Source of the DNA: Microbacterium sp.
GTDB taxonomy: Bacteria; Actinomycetota; Actinomycetes; Actinomycetales; Microbacteriaceae
DNA length: 64,000 nt
NCBI RefSeq assembly: GCF_041641055.1
Contig: NZ_JBEPZB010000008.1
Coordinates: forward strand, 46,600-110,599
Direction of reading: 5' to 3'
Below are positions 16,065-61,855 of this stretch, piece by piece (the stretch's first letter is position 1; each line of letters opens with the position of its first letter). Below the pieces are notes generated by a model that worked only from the letters and a program-made list of their open reading frames with translations, did not search any database and was not told the origin of the DNA. Both the position numbers and the translations under genes were made by a program.

Positions 16065-16727
16065 ATGAGCAGGGTCGCACTCATCGACGATCACGAATCC
16101 GTCCGCCTCGGTCTCGAGGCCGCGTGCGCTCGTGACGGTGCGCAGACCGTCGTCTTCTCCGGGAGCACGGTGGTCTCCTATCTCGACTGGCGTTCGGCCA
16201 CCTCGTCTCCGCCGGCGGACGTCGTGGTGCTCGATCTGACCCTCGGCGACGGCACGACCGTGACCGAGAACGTCAGGTCGCTCGTGGCGGACGGCGCGAG
16301 CGTGGTCATCCACAGCGTCGCCGACCGACCCGCAGCTGTGCGCGAGGCGCTCGTCGCCGGTGCGGCGGGCGTCGTGAGCAAGTCCTCGGCCCTCGACGAC
16401 GTGCTCGACGCCATCCGCACGGTCGCCCAGGGCGAGGCCCTCAACAACGTCGAGTGGGCGAGTGCGGTCGACGGCGACCGCGACTTCGCCGACGCCCAGC
16501 TGTCCACCCGCGAGCGTGAGGTGCTGCGCCTGTACGCCACGGGCCTGCCGCTGAAGGCGGTGGCCGAACGACTCGGCGTCGCGTACTCGACGGCCAAGGA
16601 GAACATCACCCGCATCCGCGTCAAGTACGTCGAGGTCGGCCGGCCGGCTCCGACGAAGGTCGACCTGCTGCGCCGCGCGATGGAGGACGGCATCGTGGCG
16701 GCCGACGGGGCGCCGAGTGCCCGCTGA
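16065..16727 (+). CDS. NarL/LuxR-family response regulator
   Basis: LIDDH acidic pocket, VVLDLTLGDG phospho-Asp, and LSTREREVLRLYATGL LuxR-type HTH. Confidence 0.9.
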   Translation: MSRVALIDDHESVRLGLEAACARDGAQTVVFSGSTVVSYLDWRSATSSPPADVVVLDLTLGDGTTVTENVRSLVADGASVVIHSVADRPAAVREALVAGAAGVVSKSSALDDVLDAIRTVAQGEALNNVEWASAVDGDRDFADAQLSTREREVLRLYATGLPLKAVAERLGVAYSTAKENITRIRVKYVEVGRPAPTKVDLLRRAMEDGIVAADGAPSAR

Positions 16728-17949
16728 CCCGCTCAGCATCCGCGAGGCCTGGAGCAAGATCCCCTCTCCGGGCAGTGTGGAGACCGAGTTCGAGCGCTTC
16801 ACGGGCAAGCGCATGGAGCGGATCCTCGCGACCGTCGTCGCGATCGGATCGGGCATCCTCGGCGCGCAGGCGCTGATCGCGGGCATCACGACGATGGCAT
16901 GGGCGGATGCCGCGCGCATCGCGATGCTGCTCGTCGTCTTCGTCCCGCTCGTGGTGATGCTGGTCGCCTGTGTGGTCGGCCGCGGGGTGCGCACAGCCTC
17001 GGGCGCGTTCGCGATCGTGTACACGGCGGCGCTGGCGGCGTGGCCGAGCTTCGTCGATCCGATGGTGAAGGCGGCGGATCAGCCGTGGATCTTCTTCCTC
17101 GTGAACGTCGGCGTCGTCGCGGCGATGCTGGCCTTCCCGCTCTGGCTCCAGTTCACCTGGGCGGTGTGCCTGCCCTTCGTGTACGGGTACGTCCGGCTGG
17201 TCGAGGGGGAGTTCTCCCGCGATTACTGGGTGATCACGGCGTTCGACGTCTCGTTCACCCTGATCCTCGGCATCGTGATCATCTCGCTCGGCTGGATGTT
17301 CCGCTCCGTGGCGGCGGGCGTCGACGAAGCCCGTGCACGCGCAGTGGCCTCCTATGCCGCGGCCGCCGCGGCAGCGGCCGCAGAGGAGGAGCGCGCCACG
17401 ATGTCGGCGCTCATGCACGACAGCGTCCTCGCCGCGCTGATCGCCGCCGAGCGGGCGGAGGGCGAGCGCGCCCAGGAGCTCGCCGTCGGCATGGCACGGG
17501 AAGCGCTCACCCGCCTCGCCAACACCGAGGCGGCCGTGGCCCAGGAGGGGAGCGATGAGCCGGTCGGCGCGGCGCAGATCGTGATCGAGCTCCGGCGGGC
17601 GCTCTCCGAACTCGGTGCGGATGCGATCGTCGAGGAGCGCGGCGGCATCGGCCTGATCCCCGGCCGCGCCGCCAGAGCGCTCGTCCTCGCGGCGAGGCAA
17701 GCACTCGGCAACGCGGTGACCCACGCCCACGGTCGAGGCCTGCACATCATCGCCGAGGGGCGAGGTGACGAGGGCATCACCGTGACCATCTCCGATACCG
17801 GGCCCGGATTCGACATCGAGGCGATCGGGGCCGACCGCCTCGGCATCCGCGCGTCGATCTTCGCCCGCATGGCGGGCGTCGCCGGCACCGCCGACATCGA
17901 CTCGAGCCGATTCGGCACGACGGTGACGCTGGGCTGGGAGGCGCGATGA
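16717..17949 (+). CDS. Membrane sensor histidine kinase (NarX/HisKA_3-like)
   Basis: About 5 hydrophobic segments, H-box ERATMSALMHDSVL, N-box QALGNAVTHA, G1 DTGPGFD, LGIRASI and GTTVTL. Confidence 0.85.
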   Translation: MPADPLSIREAWSKIPSPGSVETEFERFTGKRMERILATVVAIGSGILGAQALIAGITTMAWADAARIAMLLVVFVPLVVMLVACVVGRGVRTASGAFAIVYTAALAAWPSFVDPMVKAADQPWIFFLVNVGVVAAMLAFPLWLQFTWAVCLPFVYGYVRLVEGEFSRDYWVITAFDVSFTLILGIVIISLGWMFRSVAAGVDEARARAVASYAAAAAAAAAEEERATMSALMHDSVLAALIAAERAEGERAQELAVGMAREALTRLANTEAAVAQEGSDEPVGAAQIVIELRRALSELGADAIVEERGGIGLIPGRAARALVLAARQALGNAVTHAHGRGLHIIAEGRGDEGITVTISDTGPGFDIEAIGADRLGIRASIFARMAGVAGTADIDSSRFGTTVTLGWEAR

Positions 17950-18950
17950 ACCGCACTGTCCGCAGCGTCGCGACCTCGCTCGCCGTCGGCTTCGCGATGT
18001 ACTTCGCGGCGCGGGGAGTGTGGTGGATCGAGCAGCCGACCGGACCGCTGCTCATGGTGGCGGCGATCGCCCTCTACCTCGTCGTCGTGAACGTGGCGAT
18101 TCTCTGGGACTCCGCCATCGCCGTCCGGATGCCCCTCTGGGTCGCGCTCCTGACGCTCGTCGCGAGTGCGCTGATCCCGGCACTGGTGACGCTCTCGCTC
18201 GATCCGCTCACGCGGACGGCACCGTTCGCGACCTGGTACATCGGAGCGCTCGGGCTGATCGGCGTCGTCTGCGTCGTGCGGCGACGATTCGTCGTCGGCT
18301 GGTCTGTCGTGCTCGTGCTCGTCGCGGCGTCCTCCCTCGCGCTGGGCTTCTTCGTGGCGCTGTCGCTCGGACTCGTCGGCTCGATCATGTGGGTCGCCGT
18401 CGCGCACCTCCTCGTCATGTTCTGGGACCGCGCGGTGCGCGACACCGAGCGGCTCGCCGGGATCCAGCAGGCGGTGTCCGCCTGGCACGCCACACAGCAG
18501 GTGCGGCAGAAGGAGCGACGGCTGCGCACGCAGTTCGCTCTGGCGGTCGCGGGGCCTGTGCTCAGCAGGGCGGTGGCGACCCAGGGCCTGCTCGACGACG
18601 AGGAGAGGCTGCAGGCACGGCTGGCGGAGGGGCGGCTGCGCGACGAGCTGCGCGGCGCCGACCTCCTCAACGATGCGGTGCGGGACGCGATCGAGGATGC
18701 CCGTCGCCGCGGCGCGGTCGTGACGGTGTTCGACGAGGGCGGTATGGACGAGGTCGACGAGGAGCGGCGCGGGGAGATCCGGGATGAACTCGCGGAGGTG
18801 CTCCGCAACGCGGAGGCCGAGCGCTGGATCATCCGGGCAGCGAGAGACCCTCGAACGGCCGTGACGGTGGTCGGCCGAGCGGGTGCCGGCGGACAGAGCG
18901 ACGACGACGCCGTCGACGTCTGGCACGAGATTCCACGCGACGCCTCGTGA
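17946..18950 (+). CDS. Multi-pass membrane protein resembling a degenerate histidine kinase
   Basis: About 6 hydrophobic segments, then a coiled segment ERRLRTQFALAVAGP with no H-box His and no N or G boxes; overlaps the kinase stop (ATGA). Confidence 0.65.
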   Translation: MNRTVRSVATSLAVGFAMYFAARGVWWIEQPTGPLLMVAAIALYLVVVNVAILWDSAIAVRMPLWVALLTLVASALIPALVTLSLDPLTRTAPFATWYIGALGLIGVVCVVRRRFVVGWSVVLVLVAASSLALGFFVALSLGLVGSIMWVAVAHLLVMFWDRAVRDTERLAGIQQAVSAWHATQQVRQKERRLRTQFALAVAGPVLSRAVATQGLLDDEERLQARLAEGRLRDELRGADLLNDAVRDAIEDARRRGAVVTVFDEGGMDEVDEERRGEIRDELAEVLRNAEAERWIIRAARDPRTAVTVVGRAGAGGQSDDDAVDVWHEIPRDAS

Positions 18951-18982
18951 CCGTTCGGCATCACCGCTGCGCCAGGACCTGC

Positions 18983-19019
18983 CCTCGGCTCTGATCGGGG
19001 GAGGAGATCAGAGTCGAGG
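18983..19019 (+). terminator. Hairpin downstream of the two-component operon
   Basis: 14-bp stem cctcggctctgatc / gatcagagtcgagg; its one G-U pair is valid on the plus strand; loop gggggagga. Confidence 0.6.
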
Positions 19020-19020
19020 C

Positions 19021-19153
19021 GAAAGAGTGGGCGAGGGGCGGCGAATCCGCCAGCCCCTCGCCGTGCGGAACAGTTACCCGAAAACCGTCCGCTGGTGGCC
19101 GGTCTGCGTCTATCTACCCTGGGACAGAGAGACCAGCCGAACGCGAAGCGTCT
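19021..19153 (-). ncRNA. Candidate structured small RNA (three hairpins, last one terminator-like); 5' end uncertain
   Basis: Hairpins at 19097-19138, 19065-19092 and 19030-19062, followed by CACUCUUUC. Three G-U pairs form only on the minus strand. No convincing upstream minus-strand gene nearby. Confidence 0.55.
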
Positions 19154-19242
19154 CCCTTAGTCTCACGGGTCTTCGCATCCTTGTCTGTAGGTATTTTGGG
19201 GGACACGGAACCGTGCGGTGTGCGAGATGATGAGGCATGGGC

Positions 19243-20466
19243 ATGCGCCGCGGAACCAACCTCCCCCGGATGGGCGACTTCAACCAGTCGGTGATCCTGG
19301 AGGCCGTCCGGCGCTCGGTCGAGGGGCTCAGCCGCATCGAGCTGGTCGAGGCCACGGGCCTCTCCGCCCAGACCGTCACCAACATCACCCGGCGGCTCCT
19401 CGACGAGGGATTCATCACCGAGGCCGGTCGCACCATCACCGGGCCGGGCAAGCCCCGCGTCACTCTGCGCCTGGTGGCCGAGAGCCGTTACTCGGTCGGC
19501 GTGCATCTGGACCCGGCGGTGATCACCGTGGTCCTGCTCGACATGTCCGGCGCCGTCGTGGAGCGGCGGGCTGAACGCACTCCCGACAAGGATCCGCGGC
19601 GGATCGTGGACATCATGGCGCAGACCGTCGCCGACCTCATCGACGAGGCAGGGATCGACCGATCGCTGGTGGCCGGAGTCGGCGTCGCGGCCCCAGGACC
19701 GCTCGACGCCGAGCGCGGCACCGTGATCGATCCGCCCAAACTCCAGGGGTGGGAGCGGGTGCCGCTGAGGTCGGTCCTGGCCGAGGCCACCGGCCTGGAG
19801 GTGACCGTCGAGAAGGACACCACGGCCGCAGCGGTCGGCGAGCTGTGGACCGGCGGTGGTGGCCAGGGGTCATTCGTCTTCGTCTACCTCGGGACGGGTC
19901 TCGGTGCCGCGGTCGTCCGCGACGGCGAGGCGATCGCCGGCAGCTCCCACAATTTCGGGGAGATCGGACACATCATCGTCGATCCGGACGGGCCTCCGTG
20001 CGCATGCGGCCTCAGAGGCTGTGTGGAGGTCGTCTGCACTCCGCAGGCGATCGTCGAGCGAGCGGAGGCCGCGGGTCTCTGGCGCGATTCACCGACAGGC
20101 GGCGCCGAGGCGGCGATAGACGAGCGGTTCACCCAGCTCTGCGCGCGGGCGGATGCCGGTGAGCAGCCGGCCCTCGACCTGGTCCGCACAGCGGCCGATC
20201 ACCTCGCCGTCCTGATCGCGACGCTGACGAACATCCTCGACGTCGATCGCGTCGTGCTCGGCGGTCCCTTCTGGGAGCGCCTCTGCGGGGTCTATCTGCG
20301 CGAGCTGCCCGATCTCCTGCACGCCCGAAGCGCGACGCGGGCTGTGCGCACGCTGCCGGTGGAGGGGACCGTGGTCGGAGACGATGTCGGTGCAGTGGGT
20401 GCCGCCTGCGTGGTGTTGGATGCGGTCCTGACTCCGCGTGCCTCCGATCTGTACCTGGAGGACTGA
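19243..20466 (+). CDS. ROK family transcriptional regulator
   Basis: N-terminal HTH (SRIELVEATGLSAQTVTNITRRL), GVAAPGP, FGEIGH and CACGLRGCVE zinc motif. Confidence 0.9.
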   Translation: MRRGTNLPRMGDFNQSVILEAVRRSVEGLSRIELVEATGLSAQTVTNITRRLLDEGFITEAGRTITGPGKPRVTLRLVAESRYSVGVHLDPAVITVVLLDMSGAVVERRAERTPDKDPRRIVDIMAQTVADLIDEAGIDRSLVAGVGVAAPGPLDAERGTVIDPPKLQGWERVPLRSVLAEATGLEVTVEKDTTAAAVGELWTGGGGQGSFVFVYLGTGLGAAVVRDGEAIAGSSHNFGEIGHIIVDPDGPPCACGLRGCVEVVCTPQAIVERAEAAGLWRDSPTGGAEAAIDERFTQLCARADAGEQPALDLVRTAADHLAVLIATLTNILDVDRVVLGGPFWERLCGVYLRELPDLLHARSATRAVRTLPVEGTVVGDDVGAVGAACVVLDAVLTPRASDLYLED

Positions 20467-20661
20467 ATCCCCCTTCAGTGCATACCGGTATATCGGTGGG
20501 AGCTTCGAAGTGATAACTCCAATCGATGTACTATTGGAGCGATGCGCAGACTGGGGTGATGCTCGGGACGACGGTCCCGCATCGATCGACGGAGGGTCGG
20601 CTGCGTGGCCCGCGAGCTGGGGGGCTCCGCGGGTCTCGCAGACCTTCCGTCTCTCTGCGGC

Positions 20662-20907
20662 TCAGCCGGCGAACCGGCCCCAAGGGATGTCGCGACGCAG
20701 TGGCCGACGCAGCGGACGCTGCGTCCGCATCCAGGCCGAGACGACGGGCTCTTCGACGACGGCTTCCGCCGCCTCCTGCGCGTACGCGTCGCTCACGACG
20801 GCGATCAGCGCGGCGAGCTCCTCTTCGGTCGCCGCGCCGCGGGTGATCTCGATCGTCGGCGGGCGCTGGGCCTCGCCTGACCCGTCCTCTGGTGCGTGCA
20901 CGCTCAC
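20662..20907 (-). CDS. accE: Acyl-CoA carboxylase epsilon subunit
   Basis: [20 protein letters not shown] and SAW; GTG start overlaps the accD stop (GTGA). Confidence 0.85.
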
Positions 20908-22493
20908 AGCGGGATGTTCCCGTGCTTCTTCGGCGGCAGGTCCTGGCGCTTGCCCCGCAACGCGCGCAGGGCCTTCGCGATCGAGACGCGGGTGTTCGCC
21001 GGTTCGATGATGCCGTCGATCTCGCCGCGCTCCGCAGCCAGGAACGGCGAGGTCACGCTGTACGTGTACTCGTTGGCGAGCCGGGTGCGTACGGCGGCGA
21101 CGTCCTCGCCGGCCTCCTCCGCCTTCTTGATCTCGTTGCGGTAGAGGATGTTCACGGCGCCCTGGCCGCCCATGACGGCGATCTCGGCCGTCGGCCACGC
21201 GAGGTTCACGTCGGCGCCGAGCTGCTTCGAGCCCATCACGATGTACGCGCCGCCGTAGGCCTTGCGCAGGATGACGGTGACGAGGGGGACCGTTGCCTCG
21301 GCGTACGCGTAGATGAGCTTCGCGCCGCGGCGGATCACGCCCGTCCACTCCTGGTCGGTGCCTGGCAGGTAGCCCGGTACGTCGACGAGCGTGACGATCG
21401 GGATCGAGAACGCGTCGCAGAAGCGCACGAACCGGCTCGCCTTCTCGCCGGCCTCGATGTTGAGGGTGCCGGCCATCTGCGACGGCTGGTTGGCGATGAT
21501 GCCGACCGAGCGGCCCTCGACGCGACCGAATCCGATCACGATGTTGGGAGCGAACAGCGGCTGGACCTCGATGAAGTCCCCGGCGTCGACGACGTGCTCG
21601 ATCACTGTGTGGATGTCGTACGGCTGGTTGGGGGAGTCGGGGATGATCGCGTTCAGCGAGCGATCGGCATCCGTCGTCTCCCACTCGAAGCCGCTCTCGT
21701 AGCCGGGGATCTCCGCCATGTTGTTGTCGGGCAGGAAGCCGAGGAGGGTGCGGGCGTAGTCGATCGCGTCGTCTTCGTCCTCCGCCAGGTAGTGCGCCAC
21801 ACCGGAGCGGGTGTTGTGCGTGAGGGCACCGCCGAGCTCCTCCATGCCGACGTCCTCGCCGGTGACCGTCTTGATCACATCGGGACCGGTGACGAACATC
21901 TGGCTGGTCTTGTCGACCATGATGACGAAGTCGGTCAGCGCCGGGCCGTAAACCGCTCCACCGGCGGCCGGGCCCATGATGATCGAGATCTGCGGGATCA
22001 CGCCGGACGAGCGCGTGTTGAGACGGAAGATCTCGCCGTATTTGCTCAGGGCGAGCACACCCTCCTGGATGCGGGCGCCGCCGGAATCGAGGATGCCGAT
22101 GATCGGCATCCCGCCGGACAGCGCGAACTCCATGATCTTGATGATCTTGTCGCCCGAGACCTCGCCCAGCGAGCCGCCGAAAGTGGTGAAGTCCTGCGAG
22201 TAGACGGCGACGGTGCGTCCGTGGATGGTGCCGACGCCGGTGACGACCGAGTCGCCGTACGGGCGGTTCCGGTCCATTCCGAAGGCGGTGGTGCGGTGCC
22301 GCACGTACTCGTCGAACTCGACGAAGCTTCCGGGATCGACGAGCAGCTCGATGCGCTCGCGGGCGGTCATCTTGCCCTTGGCGTGCTGCTTGTCGTGCGC
22401 GACCTTCTCAGCGTCGACAACGGCTTCGTTGTAGCGAGCGCGGAGGTCTGCGATCCTGCCGGCGGTGGTCGAGAGTTCGGGCTTGTCCGTCAC
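20904..22493 (-). CDS. accD: Acyl-CoA carboxylase carboxyltransferase beta subunit (AccD5/PccB-like)
   Basis: [35 protein letters not shown] and KKHGNIPL; start GTG at 22493. Confidence 0.93.
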
Positions 22494-22625
22494 GGATTCC
22501 ACCCTATCGTCGGCTCGGCCCGCTCCGTTGGATGCTCGCCACAACGGGTCGCCCGATCCTTTGGCGTCTCTCGTGCACGCTCAGGGAACGCGGTCGGTGC
22601 GTGTCGGGGGTCCGGGTGTCAGGTC

Positions 22626-23609
22626 TCAGCGTGTCGGGTCCGGGCGATCGGCGCCGAGCTCGCCAGGGAGATCGTGCGTGCCCGACTGCTCGAGCTCACC
22701 GGCGTCCTTGCGGCGGCCCCGACCGACCGAGGCGATCCGGCGTCCGGCCCAGCCGACGCCTCGTACCGCAGAACCCGCTGCCCCCGCGACCGCGCCGCCG
22801 ACGAACTGCGCGCCGTGCAGCATCCGCAGCTCCAGCTTCTCGGCCCCGTCCACCGGTTCGAGTTCGAGCGGCAGATCGAGAGGCGCGGCGCCGAACGCGT
22901 GGTGCGAGGTGGTGAGGACACGGCGCCCCAGGATGTGGTTACCCGCACCGCCGACCGCCGCACCGACGCCGAACGGCAGCGCCTTGCCGACGAACGACGC
23001 ACCGCCCTTGGCCGCGAACTGCTTCACGAACATGCTCTTGAGTCGGTCGACGAGTGGGCCGACAGCCGCGCGGGGGAGCGACTTGGTGACCATCTCGCCC
23101 CAGTACGACGAGCGTGTGCCGCCGCGGCCGGTCGCCTGACCGGCGAGCTGGCCGACGAGCGCGACGCCCTCCTTGCCCAGCATCAGCGTCATGACGAGGG
23201 CTCGGGCTCGGTCGGGGTTCGAGACGGCGATGCCGTGCACCTCGGCCACGGACTGGGCGAACAGCGCGGTCGACTCCACGAACCCCACGGTCTCGACTCC
23301 CGAGAGCGCGAGTGTGATGCCCGTGCCGATCCCCGGCACCACCGCCGTGGCACCGACGGCGGCACCGCCCGTGGTCACCGCAGTCAGGTAGCGACGTTCG
23401 AGGATGCGGATGATCTGCTCGGGGGAGGCGTGCGGGTTGCGGAGACGGATGCTGCGGATGTGCGCGAGCACGAGAGGGCGCTGGATCGCGAGGACGCGAT
23501 CCAGGCCGCGGACCATCAGCGGATGCTCCGTCGAACCCACGGGCGGCACTCCCCGGTCCCACGGGGCGTCGTCGGGGAGGGAGTGGATCTTGTGCACCTT
23601 GGGGGCCAT
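22626..23609 (-). CDS. Conserved hypothetical protein (EcsC-like Gly/Ala-rich helices)
   Basis: 327-aa ORF with typical codon bias; GAAVGATAVVPGIGT and GKALPFGVGAAVGG; TAGGAT -10 box 6 nt upstream. Confidence 0.6.
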   Translation of the reverse strand: MAPKVHKIHSLPDDAPWDRGVPPVGSTEHPLMVRGLDRVLAIQRPLVLAHIRSIRLRNPHASPEQIIRILERRYLTAVTTGGAAVGATAVVPGIGTGITLALSGVETVGFVESTALFAQSVAEVHGIAVSNPDRARALVMTLMLGKEGVALVGQLAGQATGRGGTRSSYWGEMVTKSLPRAAVGPLVDRLKSMFVKQFAAKGGASFVGKALPFGVGAAVGGAGNHILGRRVLTTSHHAFGAAPLDLPLELEPVDGAEKLELRMLHGAQFVGGAVAGAAGSAVRGVGWAGRRIASVGRGRRKDAGELEQSGTHDLPGELGADRPDPTR

Positions 23610-23643
23610 GGATCGATCCTAGGAAGACAGTCCGCGAATACGC

Positions 23644-23679
23644 CGAAAGCCCGGCACCCTTGACGGGGCCGGGCTTTCG
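23644..23679 (-). terminator. Intrinsic terminator after the nucleotidyltransferase gene
   Basis: 12-bp stem cgaaagcccggc / gccgggctttcg. Confidence 0.7.
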
Positions 23680-37408: not shown

Positions 37409-37490
37409 TGCGGAAGGTGGGACTTGAACCCACACGCCCTAGGGCACAGGAACCTAAATCCTGCGTGTCTGCCAATTTCACCACTCCCGC
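37409..37490 (-). tRNA. tRNA-Leu, anticodon TAG
   Basis: Acceptor GCGGGAG/CTTCCGC plus A, anticodon arm CAGGA-TTTAGGT-TCCTG, long variable arm, GGTTCAAGTCC T-arm; CCA not encoded. Confidence 0.95.
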
Positions 37491-61468: not shown

Positions 61469-61855
61469 ATGGCAAGAGTCAAGCGGGCGGTAAACGCCCA
61501 CAAGAAGCGTCGCGTCATCCTCGAGCGCGCCTCCGGCTACCGCGGTCAGCGTTCGCGCCTCTACCGCAAGGCCAAGGAGCAGGTCATCCACTCCCTGGTG
61601 TACTCGTACCGGGACCGTCGCAAGCGCAAGGGCGACTTCCGTCGCCTCTGGATCCAGCGCATCAACGCCGCTGCACGCCAGAACGGCATCACGTACAACC
61701 GCTTCATCCAGGGCCTCGGCCTCGCGGGTGTCACCGTCGACCGTCGTATGCTCGCTGACCTCGCGGTCAACGACGCTGCGACCTTCACGACGCTGGTCGA
61801 GACGGCGAAGAAGGCTCTGCCCTCTGACGTCAACGCCCCGAAGACGGCTGCGTAA
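61469..61855 (+). CDS. rplT: 50S ribosomal protein L20
   Basis: [15 protein letters not shown] and [14 protein letters not shown]. Confidence 0.97.

Follow-up and report, generated by a model that had tools for sequence, protein, structure and literature searches.

Several small RNAs (sRNAs) are known as outputs of bacterial two-component systems, among them RsmY/RsmZ and CsrB under GacA/UvrY, which belong to the NarL/FixJ family and act through an upstream activating sequence, the csRNAs under CiaRH, OmrA/B under OmpR, and MgrR under PhoP. Another arrangement is that of GadY, which acts on gadX in Escherichia coli as a convergent cis-antisense sRNA. Very few actinobacterial small RNAs have been described outside Mycobacterium, Streptomyces, and Corynebacterium, and neither a CsrA nor a general RNA chaperone is known in Actinobacteria. 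Here we analysed a stretch of 64,000 nt from Microbacterium sp. (contig NZ_JBEPZB010000008.1, positions 46,600 to 110,599 of the forward strand; the window, numbered from its first letter). We describe in it a conserved, structured RNA element of ~130 nt on the minus strand at about 19152/3 to about 19022, which lies tail-to-tail with a three-gene two-component operon and, in the window, back-to-back with a gene for a ROK regulator. A first-pass annotation, made from the letters of the window, had proposed an unannotated regulatory sRNA at this place.

The locus resembles the two-component-output sRNAs in that a small RNA gene with a terminator-type end lies beside, or is controlled by, a response regulator, in that a conserved regulator-type DNA element is placed upstream of or over the -35 region, and in that the predicted core promoter is weak. 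As in the Rsm/Csr RNAs, a short motif is repeated in hairpin loops. The locus differs from these systems by its single gene copy and by loops with GGGUA, not GGA or the anti-Shine-Dalgarno sequence CCUCC; the many GGA loop motifs of Csr/Rsm-type RNAs are lacking, there being only two loops, each with GGGUA. Its DNA element, a 24-bp box, is also unlike the known operators of GacA (TGTAAG-N6-CTTACA) and CiaR (TTTAAG-N5-TTTAAG).

Four other systems invite comparison. The 6C RNA (RF01066) is likewise an actinobacterial hairpin RNA of ~100 nt in which the loops are most conserved, but its loops are C-rich and those described here are G-rich, the present RNA is confined to Microbacterium and close relatives, and the 6C covariance model gave no match even at E = 10. 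As in GadY/gadX, the RNA gene is tail-to-tail with a regulatory operon whose read-through would be fully complementary to it in the 3' untranslated region (UTR); in contrast to GadY/gadX, the transcript overlap is hypothetical here, and the invariant loops argue for an additional partner in trans. In the ancestral gene order the RNA follows same-strand acyl-CoA carboxylase beta and epsilon genes within ~100 nt and has a predicted promoter of its own, which recalls the MicL/DapZ type of separately transcribed sRNA at an mRNA 3' end, except that the promoter lies past the stop codon and not within the coding sequence, and that in the window lineage the ROK gene separates the carboxylase genes from an unchanged, and so autonomous, RNA unit. 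The window also shares with SgrR-SgrS/SgrT a sugar-type regulator gene divergent from a small RNA gene; unlike that system, the ROK gene appears to be a late insertion, the peptide open reading frame (ORF) is unconserved, and ROK and SgrR are unrelated families.

Results

Four hairpins fold and covary on the minus strand

The three back-to-back hairpins of the first-pass annotation (H1, H2, and H3) were exact in coordinates and sequence, and a fourth helix, P0, had been overlooked. The predicted RNA and its parts are as follows.

About 19152/3 to about 19022, minus strand: predicted RNA of ~130 nt, in the order 5' P0, H1, H2, H3 3'
19140-19152, minus strand: P0, 5'-terminal hairpin GACGC-UUC-GCGUU
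19097-19138, minus strand: H1, 13 pairs in a two-part stem, GGCUGGUC/GACCGGCC and UCUGUC/GAUAGA, with the loop CCAGGGUA at 19115-19122
19065-19092, minus strand: H2, 10 pairs in the stem GCGGACGGUU/AACUG-UCCGC, with the loop UUCGGGU at 19076-19082
19030-19062, minus strand: H3, a G+C-rich, terminator-type hairpin of 14 pairs; with its tail it occupies 19022-19062

The tail 3' of H3 reads CACUCUUUC (listed with the H3 feature as CACUCUUU) and holds a weak U tract. Both the H1 loop CCAGGGUA and the H2 loop (UUCGGGU-A) are G-rich and have GGGUA in common. The minus strand of 19015-19185 folded at -84.6 kcal/mol (z = -4.58), and none of 200 dinucleotide shuffles was equally stable, so that the proposed minus-strand fold is beyond chance; the plus strand of the same segment gave z = -2.12. 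When the transcript was trimmed to 19022-19153, the fold reached -72 kcal/mol (z = -5.60), and its minimum-energy structure was the comparative consensus. An alternative fold that pairs GCUGGU with ACCAGC, also suggested earlier, was discarded: it is 91.5% paired, yet 191 of 500 shuffles did as well, and it lacks covariation.

The consensus structure was derived by RNAalifold from a MAFFT alignment of 67 Microbacterium sequences, and comprises five helices and 42 pairs (P0, outer H1, inner H1, H2, and H3), with standard pairs in 99.4% of 2813 cells. Nine pairs showed double-sided changes in this alignment, and 0/500 shuffles reached any of five measures. When the 3' partners were slid by 1-3 columns as a control, pairing fell to 35-51%. 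Examples of compensation are GGCU/GGCC to GAUC/GAUC, and UCUGUC/GACAGA to either UCUGCC/GGCAGA or UCUCUC/GAGAGA. The check for covariation among relatives that the first-pass annotation had suggested was thus run, with compensatory changes found beyond all 500 shuffles.

A covariance model built from the same alignment was then run on the contigs of one metagenome pattern scan (114 stretches), and gave 56 full-length matches of 60-182 bits in the first 80 contigs, with more in the remaining ones. In the resulting wider set of 87 distinct sequences, metagenomes included, double-sided changes were seen in 27 of the 42 pairs (221 cells), in an alignment that was fitted to the model and leans towards structure. 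The metagenome members had been fished with both loop sequences, so among them loop invariance holds by construction.

Each helix contributed to this picture. P0 was fully paired (100%) in the 67 genomes while its loop varied (UUC, UCA, UAC, UAU), and four of its five pairs had double-sided changes in the wider set. Compensatory changes affected 6/13 pairs of H1 among genomes and 10/13 in the wider set, together with many switches between G-U, G-C, and A-U. H2 was 98% paired, with double-sided changes in six of ten pairs in the wider set, and H3 was 99.9% paired, its compensatory changes turning C-G into A-U or U-A. The loop of H3 also varies in length: across loci L045, L053, L044, L014, and L049 it carries either a 3-nt insertion that lengthens the apical stem-loop or a 1-nt insertion, and the lower 10 pairs are untouched.

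The functional strand could be read from the same alignment, in which 265 cells were G-U and only two A-C. Read on the plus strand, the helices other than the near-palindromic H3 were only 85% paired, with 10-15% of pairs mismatched. This count places the functional strand on the minus side, and bears out the earlier observation of G-U pairs that work on the minus strand only. Taken as comparative evidence, these results establish a conserved, structured minus-strand RNA element, in its structure, its strand, and its conservation.

The RNA is better conserved than the genes around it

Loci were retrieved through the neighbouring ROK protein, with one genome per species, which gave 80 loci. Of these, 66 came from Microbacterium or unnamed close relatives, and 14 from Agromyces, Arthrobacter, Cellulomonas, and one unclassified Actinomycetales metagenome-assembled genome. 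The intergenic element was present in 66/66 Microbacterium-type loci, and the covariance model found no copy at the 14 ROK loci of other genera (0/14). In the 64-kb window the model found a single copy; a weak full-length match at 61470-61616 (plus strand; 12.4 bits, E = 0.17), with many broken pairs, is most likely due to chance.

Across the 66 Microbacterium loci, median nucleotide identity to the window was 92% for the RNA (19022-19153) and 100% for the 24-bp box, compared with 86% for the coding sequence of the regulator, 80% for the kinase, 76% for the membrane protein, and 74% for ROK, and with 42-57% for the remaining intergenic DNA. That a non-coding segment surpasses each of its neighbour genes in conservation speaks strongly for a function. 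The RNA family is confined to Microbacterium and close relatives, and the operon together with the RNA looks like a module specific to the Microbacterium lineage.

The RNA matches no catalogued family and is non-coding by comparison

When the whole window was searched with Rfam 15 at gathering thresholds, the only match was a transfer RNA at 37409-37490 (minus strand). At E values up to 10 on 18900-19300, the best match was Pseudomonas P18, whose 19.4 bits fall short of the threshold of 60, and five homologous loci gave no Rfam matches. The first-pass annotation had called the RNA unannotated and outside known families, and the Rfam check agreed for 6C, Ms1, 6S, transfer-messenger RNA, signal recognition particle RNA, RNase P, and riboswitches. 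In the literature searched we found nothing on Microbacterium sRNAs, and the motif was absent from the Breaker-laboratory surveys that were checked. The RNA is a previously uncatalogued family; its logic is of a familiar kind and brings no new principle.

A 22-codon ORF with the peptide MRRPVRLRETLRVRLVSLSQGR had also been put forward. Its ATG (19176-19178) belongs to a variable spacer that precedes the predicted +1, and the ORF is not conserved: any ATG in this spacer segment was seen in 9 of 62 genome and 6 of 73 metagenome sequences. The conserved part contains no ATG, GTG, or TTG in the minus-strand sense. Species often differ by 1-nt indels in the 3' arm of H2 and in the length of the H3 loop, and these differences break every frame on both strands, including a 115-codon plus-strand ORF at 18883-19230. 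By these sequence criteria the RNA is non-coding.

A 24-bp box and a promoter signature precede the RNA

Upstream of the RNA, on the same strand, the following features were read from the comparison.

19182-19205, minus strand: box TGTCCCCCAAAATACCTACAGACA, an invariant 24-bp dyad TGTCY-N14-RGACA
19165-19181, minus strand: promoter spacer, 17 nt here, variable in sequence and fixed in length, which holds the ATG at 19176-19178
19159-19164, minus strand: -10-like hexamer GAGACT (family pattern nAgACT)
19152-19153, minus strand: predicted transcription start (G19152 or A19153), 6-7 nt past the hexamer

The box carries ~2 bits per position over 113 unique sequences, and its variable positions are found only in the A-rich centre between the fixed half-sites. 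It was present upstream of every homologue, those without ROK included, with one copy per locus. Counted from the predicted start, the box reaches from -53 to -30 and has its centre at -41.5, and its last six bases, CAGACA (19182-19187), occupy the -35 position (-35 to -30). Among 135 unique sequences the spacer measured 17 nt in 115 and 18 nt in 19, and an nANNNT hexamer followed in 134 (variants CAGACT, GAGACT, GATACT, CATACT, GAAACT, CAGAAT, and GAAAAT), with the A at -11 and the T at -7 invariant. Positions -6 to -1 are variable, and conservation resumes at GACGC. In divergent members the distance from hexamer to P0 is 10-12 nt instead of 7, and the conserved leader (GCUGGA...) still starts ~6 nt past the hexamer. 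Information content is accordingly high over the box, drops through the spacer and discriminator, and climbs again at +1. A consensus scan found no sigma-70 site.

This pattern of spacer, hexamer, and restart of conservation is the signature of a -35, spacer, -10, discriminator, and +1, and not that of an RNA element. In bacterial promoters a centre at -41.5 is the classical class II activator position. With an imperfect core promoter (four of six -35 positions, no T at -12) and a box so placed, transcription is most likely activator-dependent.

Two other features of the region were considered and set aside. The spacer has low information content and no hairpin or palindrome beyond chance (median z +0.4); structure of that kind would have favoured a longer RNA. 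A second promoter could be drawn from a semi-conserved TTGAC-like word in the spacer (19171-19176; GCGAAG in the window) with GACGCT 18 nt downstream, but this spacing is kept only within Microbacterium and lost in divergent members. An inverted repeat at 19204-19215 (cacgg-tt-ccgtg) had earlier been taken for a possible operator. The repeat is unconserved, a near-identical strain differing at 19211-19215, and the conserved element beside it is the 24-bp box.

The RNA stays with a three-gene two-component operon

The neighbouring features on the plus strand are these.

16065-16727, plus strand: NarL/LuxR-type response regulator (Pfam/NCBIfam)
16717-17949, plus strand: histidine kinase, with a weak MacS-type resemblance below threshold
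17946-18950, plus strand: polytopic membrane protein with ~5 membrane helices and a charged cytoplasmic tail
18983-19019, plus strand: operon-side hairpin, between the RNA gene and the operon stop codon (18950)
19237-20466, plus strand: ROK regulator gene, between the promoter box and the carboxylase genes

In 66/66 Microbacterium loci the order was regulator, kinase, membrane protein (plus), RNA (minus), and ROK (plus). In the divergent metagenome loci (60-157 bits) the RNA was still directly convergent with the three-gene operon wherever the locus was long enough, with protein identities down to 75% for the regulator, 44% for the kinase, and 42% for the membrane protein. Such conserved synteny sustains the link to the adjacent NarL-type two-component operon that the first-pass annotation had drawn. 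The separate plus-strand hairpin that it had seen at 18983-19019 was likewise exact in its coordinates; one of its pairs would be G-U if read on the plus strand but A-C on the minus, and it is probably the convergent operon's own 3' hairpin. Since this hairpin lacks a U tract, the operon may plausibly read through into the RNA gene.

In the divergent loci ROK is absent, and a minus-strand acyl-CoA carboxylase carboxyltransferase and its epsilon subunit stand in its place. The same carboxylase genes lie beyond ROK in the window, with the carboxyltransferase at 20904-22544 and the epsilon subunit at about 20662-20900, both on the minus strand. The box in divergent loci is found 25-50 nt past the epsilon-subunit stop codon, often after a hairpin (L082, L116, L119, L113, L117, and L127 among the loci). 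By this comparison of gene orders, ROK appears to be a later, lineage-specific insertion between the carboxylase genes and an intact RNA unit. An insertion that leaves the unit intact marks the box and RNA as autonomous and ROK as not their regulator. The suggested ROK link, on the analogy of SgrR-SgrS/SgrT, was given up for this reason, since divergent loci retain the RNA and lack ROK.

The third gene of the operon had been called a pseudokinase, and it shows no sequence similarity to the kinase (BLASTP E = 0.17). No Pfam or NCBIfam family was found for this membrane protein (17946-18950) in the copies searched, and some of its homologues carry a precomputed PF26994 tag. The family is small and seems limited to Microbacterium and close relatives; its named members are Microbacterium or 'Microbacteriaceae bacterium', plus one 80%-identical record labelled Streptomyces sp. 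Beyond ROK, two plus-strand ORFs at 20892-23663 (923 aa) and 20438-21010 (190 aa) are rich in Arg, Ala, Asp, and Gly and have no family matches. They are antisense shadows of the carboxyltransferase and epsilon-subunit genes, reach 60-78% tblastn identity across species, and could mislead annotation.

Contigs of one public run show that the RNA region is transcribed

The expression data are Logan contigs of public runs, which are unstranded and give depth as a mean per contig. Depth is confounded where several strains collapse onto the conserved core, and the 'peaks' over the RNA in soil metatranscriptomes and in run X38 stem from stacked strain variants. Contig ends cluster in or near the H3 palindrome, where they are probably assembly breaks, and one contig from an RNA run starts at 19026, 4 nt past the H3 stem. 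In run X36 (labelled metatranscriptome; reference L009), coverage ran without a gap from the membrane-protein gene across the RNA region and ended at the equivalent of 19166. It was zero over ~130 nt that comprise the box and the ROK start, and resumed at low depth inside ROK. From this coverage we conclude that the RNA region is transcribed and the box is not, with little DNA carry-over in X36. The data are consistent with a discrete minus-strand RNA, whose predicted ends the contig boundaries do not match exactly.

Two runs labelled RNA, X45 and X46, from different organisms and studies, contained the same ~190-nt contig with identical variants (L033:3817-4010). It covers H2, H1, P0, the promoter, the box, and the ROK start, and a dozen further runs have the same word share, which suggests a common Microbacterium contaminant, either RNA or DNA.

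Discussion

We lean, with moderate confidence, towards an activator-dependent, independently transcribed non-coding sRNA of ~130 nt that is an output of the neighbouring two-component system and acts in trans through its loops. Such an RNA would be transcribed from its own sigma-A-type promoter with an imperfect core (-35 CAGACA, 17-nt spacer, -10 GAGACT), and a DNA-binding regulator at the 24-bp box, in which the -35 is embedded, would switch it on. The best candidate for this regulator is the NarL-type response regulator of the convergent operon, which was found beside the RNA in each genome looked at; on this view the RNA would be the post-transcriptional output of the sensor system. Invariant loops on freely varying stems argue for a conserved partner in trans, and the loops CCAGGGUA and UUCGGGU may act on messenger RNAs (mRNAs) with UACCC-type sites or on a protein, possibly a dimer. 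Should transcription of the operon read through, its 3' UTR would be perfectly complementary to the RNA, so an added feedback in cis is possible.

Several observations weigh against this proposal. At the promoter, CAGACA matches TTGACA in only 4/6 positions, and a T at -12 was seen in 0/113 sequences. No further copy of the box was found elsewhere in the window or in 1.49 Mb of loci, not even before the regulator's own operon; because of this, the assignment of the response regulator comes from synteny only. The claim that H3 terminates the transcript stands as far as a conserved terminator-type 3' hairpin is concerned, but its U tract is weak and a simple terminator scan did not call it. No complement of at least 9 nt to either loop was found in the 64-kb window, which is too small for a target search; the complementarity matches derived from stems were G+C-rich noise only. 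Besides the unstranded, averaged nature of the contig data, the RNA-region contig of X36 had a mean depth of 10.5 and the neighbouring membrane-protein-gene contig 10.9, and equal depths of this kind do not point to an abundant small RNA in that run. Among the runs labelled RNA there are also contigs that continue over the box as far as the ROK start, and these may be DNA. Moreover, three contig ends from L009-type strains in runs labelled RNA fall at 19163-19168 (L009:3927-3931), at the upstream edge of the -10 hexamer; this places them 10-15 nt upstream of where transcription is predicted to begin and 16-19 nt short of the box. They are possibly plus-strand operon read-through trimmed back to the structured region, possibly read-through stalled 16-19 nt before a box-bound protein, or possibly a strain-specific start.

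The strongest competitor is a cis-antisense device, in which the operon reads through its weak hairpin (18983-19019) and across the RNA gene, and the RNA pairs over ~130 bp with the resulting 3' UTR and controls processing or stability of the operon mRNA. It would account for the never-broken tail-to-tail arrangement, strict in all 66 loci and in the metagenome loci of sufficient length down to 42% protein identity. It also agrees with the X36 contig in which the membrane-protein gene and the RNA region are linked at uniform depth as far as ~19166, and with the lack of a good plus-strand U tract at either hairpin. Complementarity in cis is automatic, however, and leaves loop invariance on free stems unexplained, and the unstranded joined contig could equally be minus-strand read-through. 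On balance we regard this as rather unlikely to be the explanation, while a GadY-like effect on the operon mRNA is a serious second mechanism that is compatible with action in trans. We are more doubtful still that the RNA is a dedicated, perhaps the sole, output of the two-component system whose two identical GGGUA loops are presented to a dimeric RNA-binding protein and do not base-pair. That a longer RNA starts upstream of the box seems improbable to a further degree. In it the C-rich box UGUCCCCCAAAAUACC would be a single-stranded seed of the 6C/RoxS kind, the short form would be processed, and in the ancestral gene order transcription would run in from the acyl-CoA carboxylase genes. Seeds rich in C are common among Gram-positive sRNAs, contigs of RNA-labelled runs extend across the box (X37, X35, X32, X45, and X46), and in divergent loci the box follows the same-strand epsilon-subunit stop codon by only 25-50 nt. 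Set against these points are the promoter signature itself (a variable spacer fixed at 17/18 nt, the nANNNT hexamer, and conservation that restarts 6-7 nt on), box variation confined to the A-rich centre between two fixed half-sites, and zero X36 coverage over the box. No conserved promoter lies upstream of the box, the plus-strand ROK gene starts 31 nt away in the window lineage, a hairpin separates the epsilon-subunit stop codon from the box in many ancestral loci, and the insertion of ROK speaks against this reading too.

Two further explanations concern what the region encodes. If the plus strand were functional, the element would be either a structured 3' UTR belonging to the two-component operon or a riboswitch or long 5' leader of ROK. 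Both flanking genes do run in the plus direction, the mirror hairpins fold there as well (z = -2.12), and X36 coverage is continuous from the membrane-protein gene. The G-U excess (265 to 2) and the 10-15% of pairs that would mismatch contradict it, as do divergent loci that keep the element without ROK and the lack of a plus-strand terminator, expression platform, or Rfam riboswitch match; we think it highly implausible. That the RNA has a dual function and also codes for the 22-residue peptide MRRPVRLRETLRVRLVSLSQGR or another small protein has next to no credibility in our judgement. The ORF is present in the window, but its start codon is upstream of the predicted start, an ATG there is rare (9/62 and 6/73), and the 1-nt indels in H2 and the H3 loop break every frame on both strands.

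The RNA is an unusually clean candidate, with strong covariation, an unambiguous strand, and a promoter that is readable from comparison alone. It pairs a 24-bp putative activator site at a class II position with an invariably linked, uncharacterised three-gene sensor operon. The box-binding regulator, the signal of the sensor, and the partners of the loops are testable in a fast-growing and tractable genus. If the reading with a dimeric RNA-binding protein were true, the locus would hold a protein-titrating RNA circuit of the Gac/Rsm kind in a phylum that is not known to have CsrA, Hfq, or ProQ. The RNA would add a family to Rfam and improve the annotation of several hundred Microbacterium genomes.

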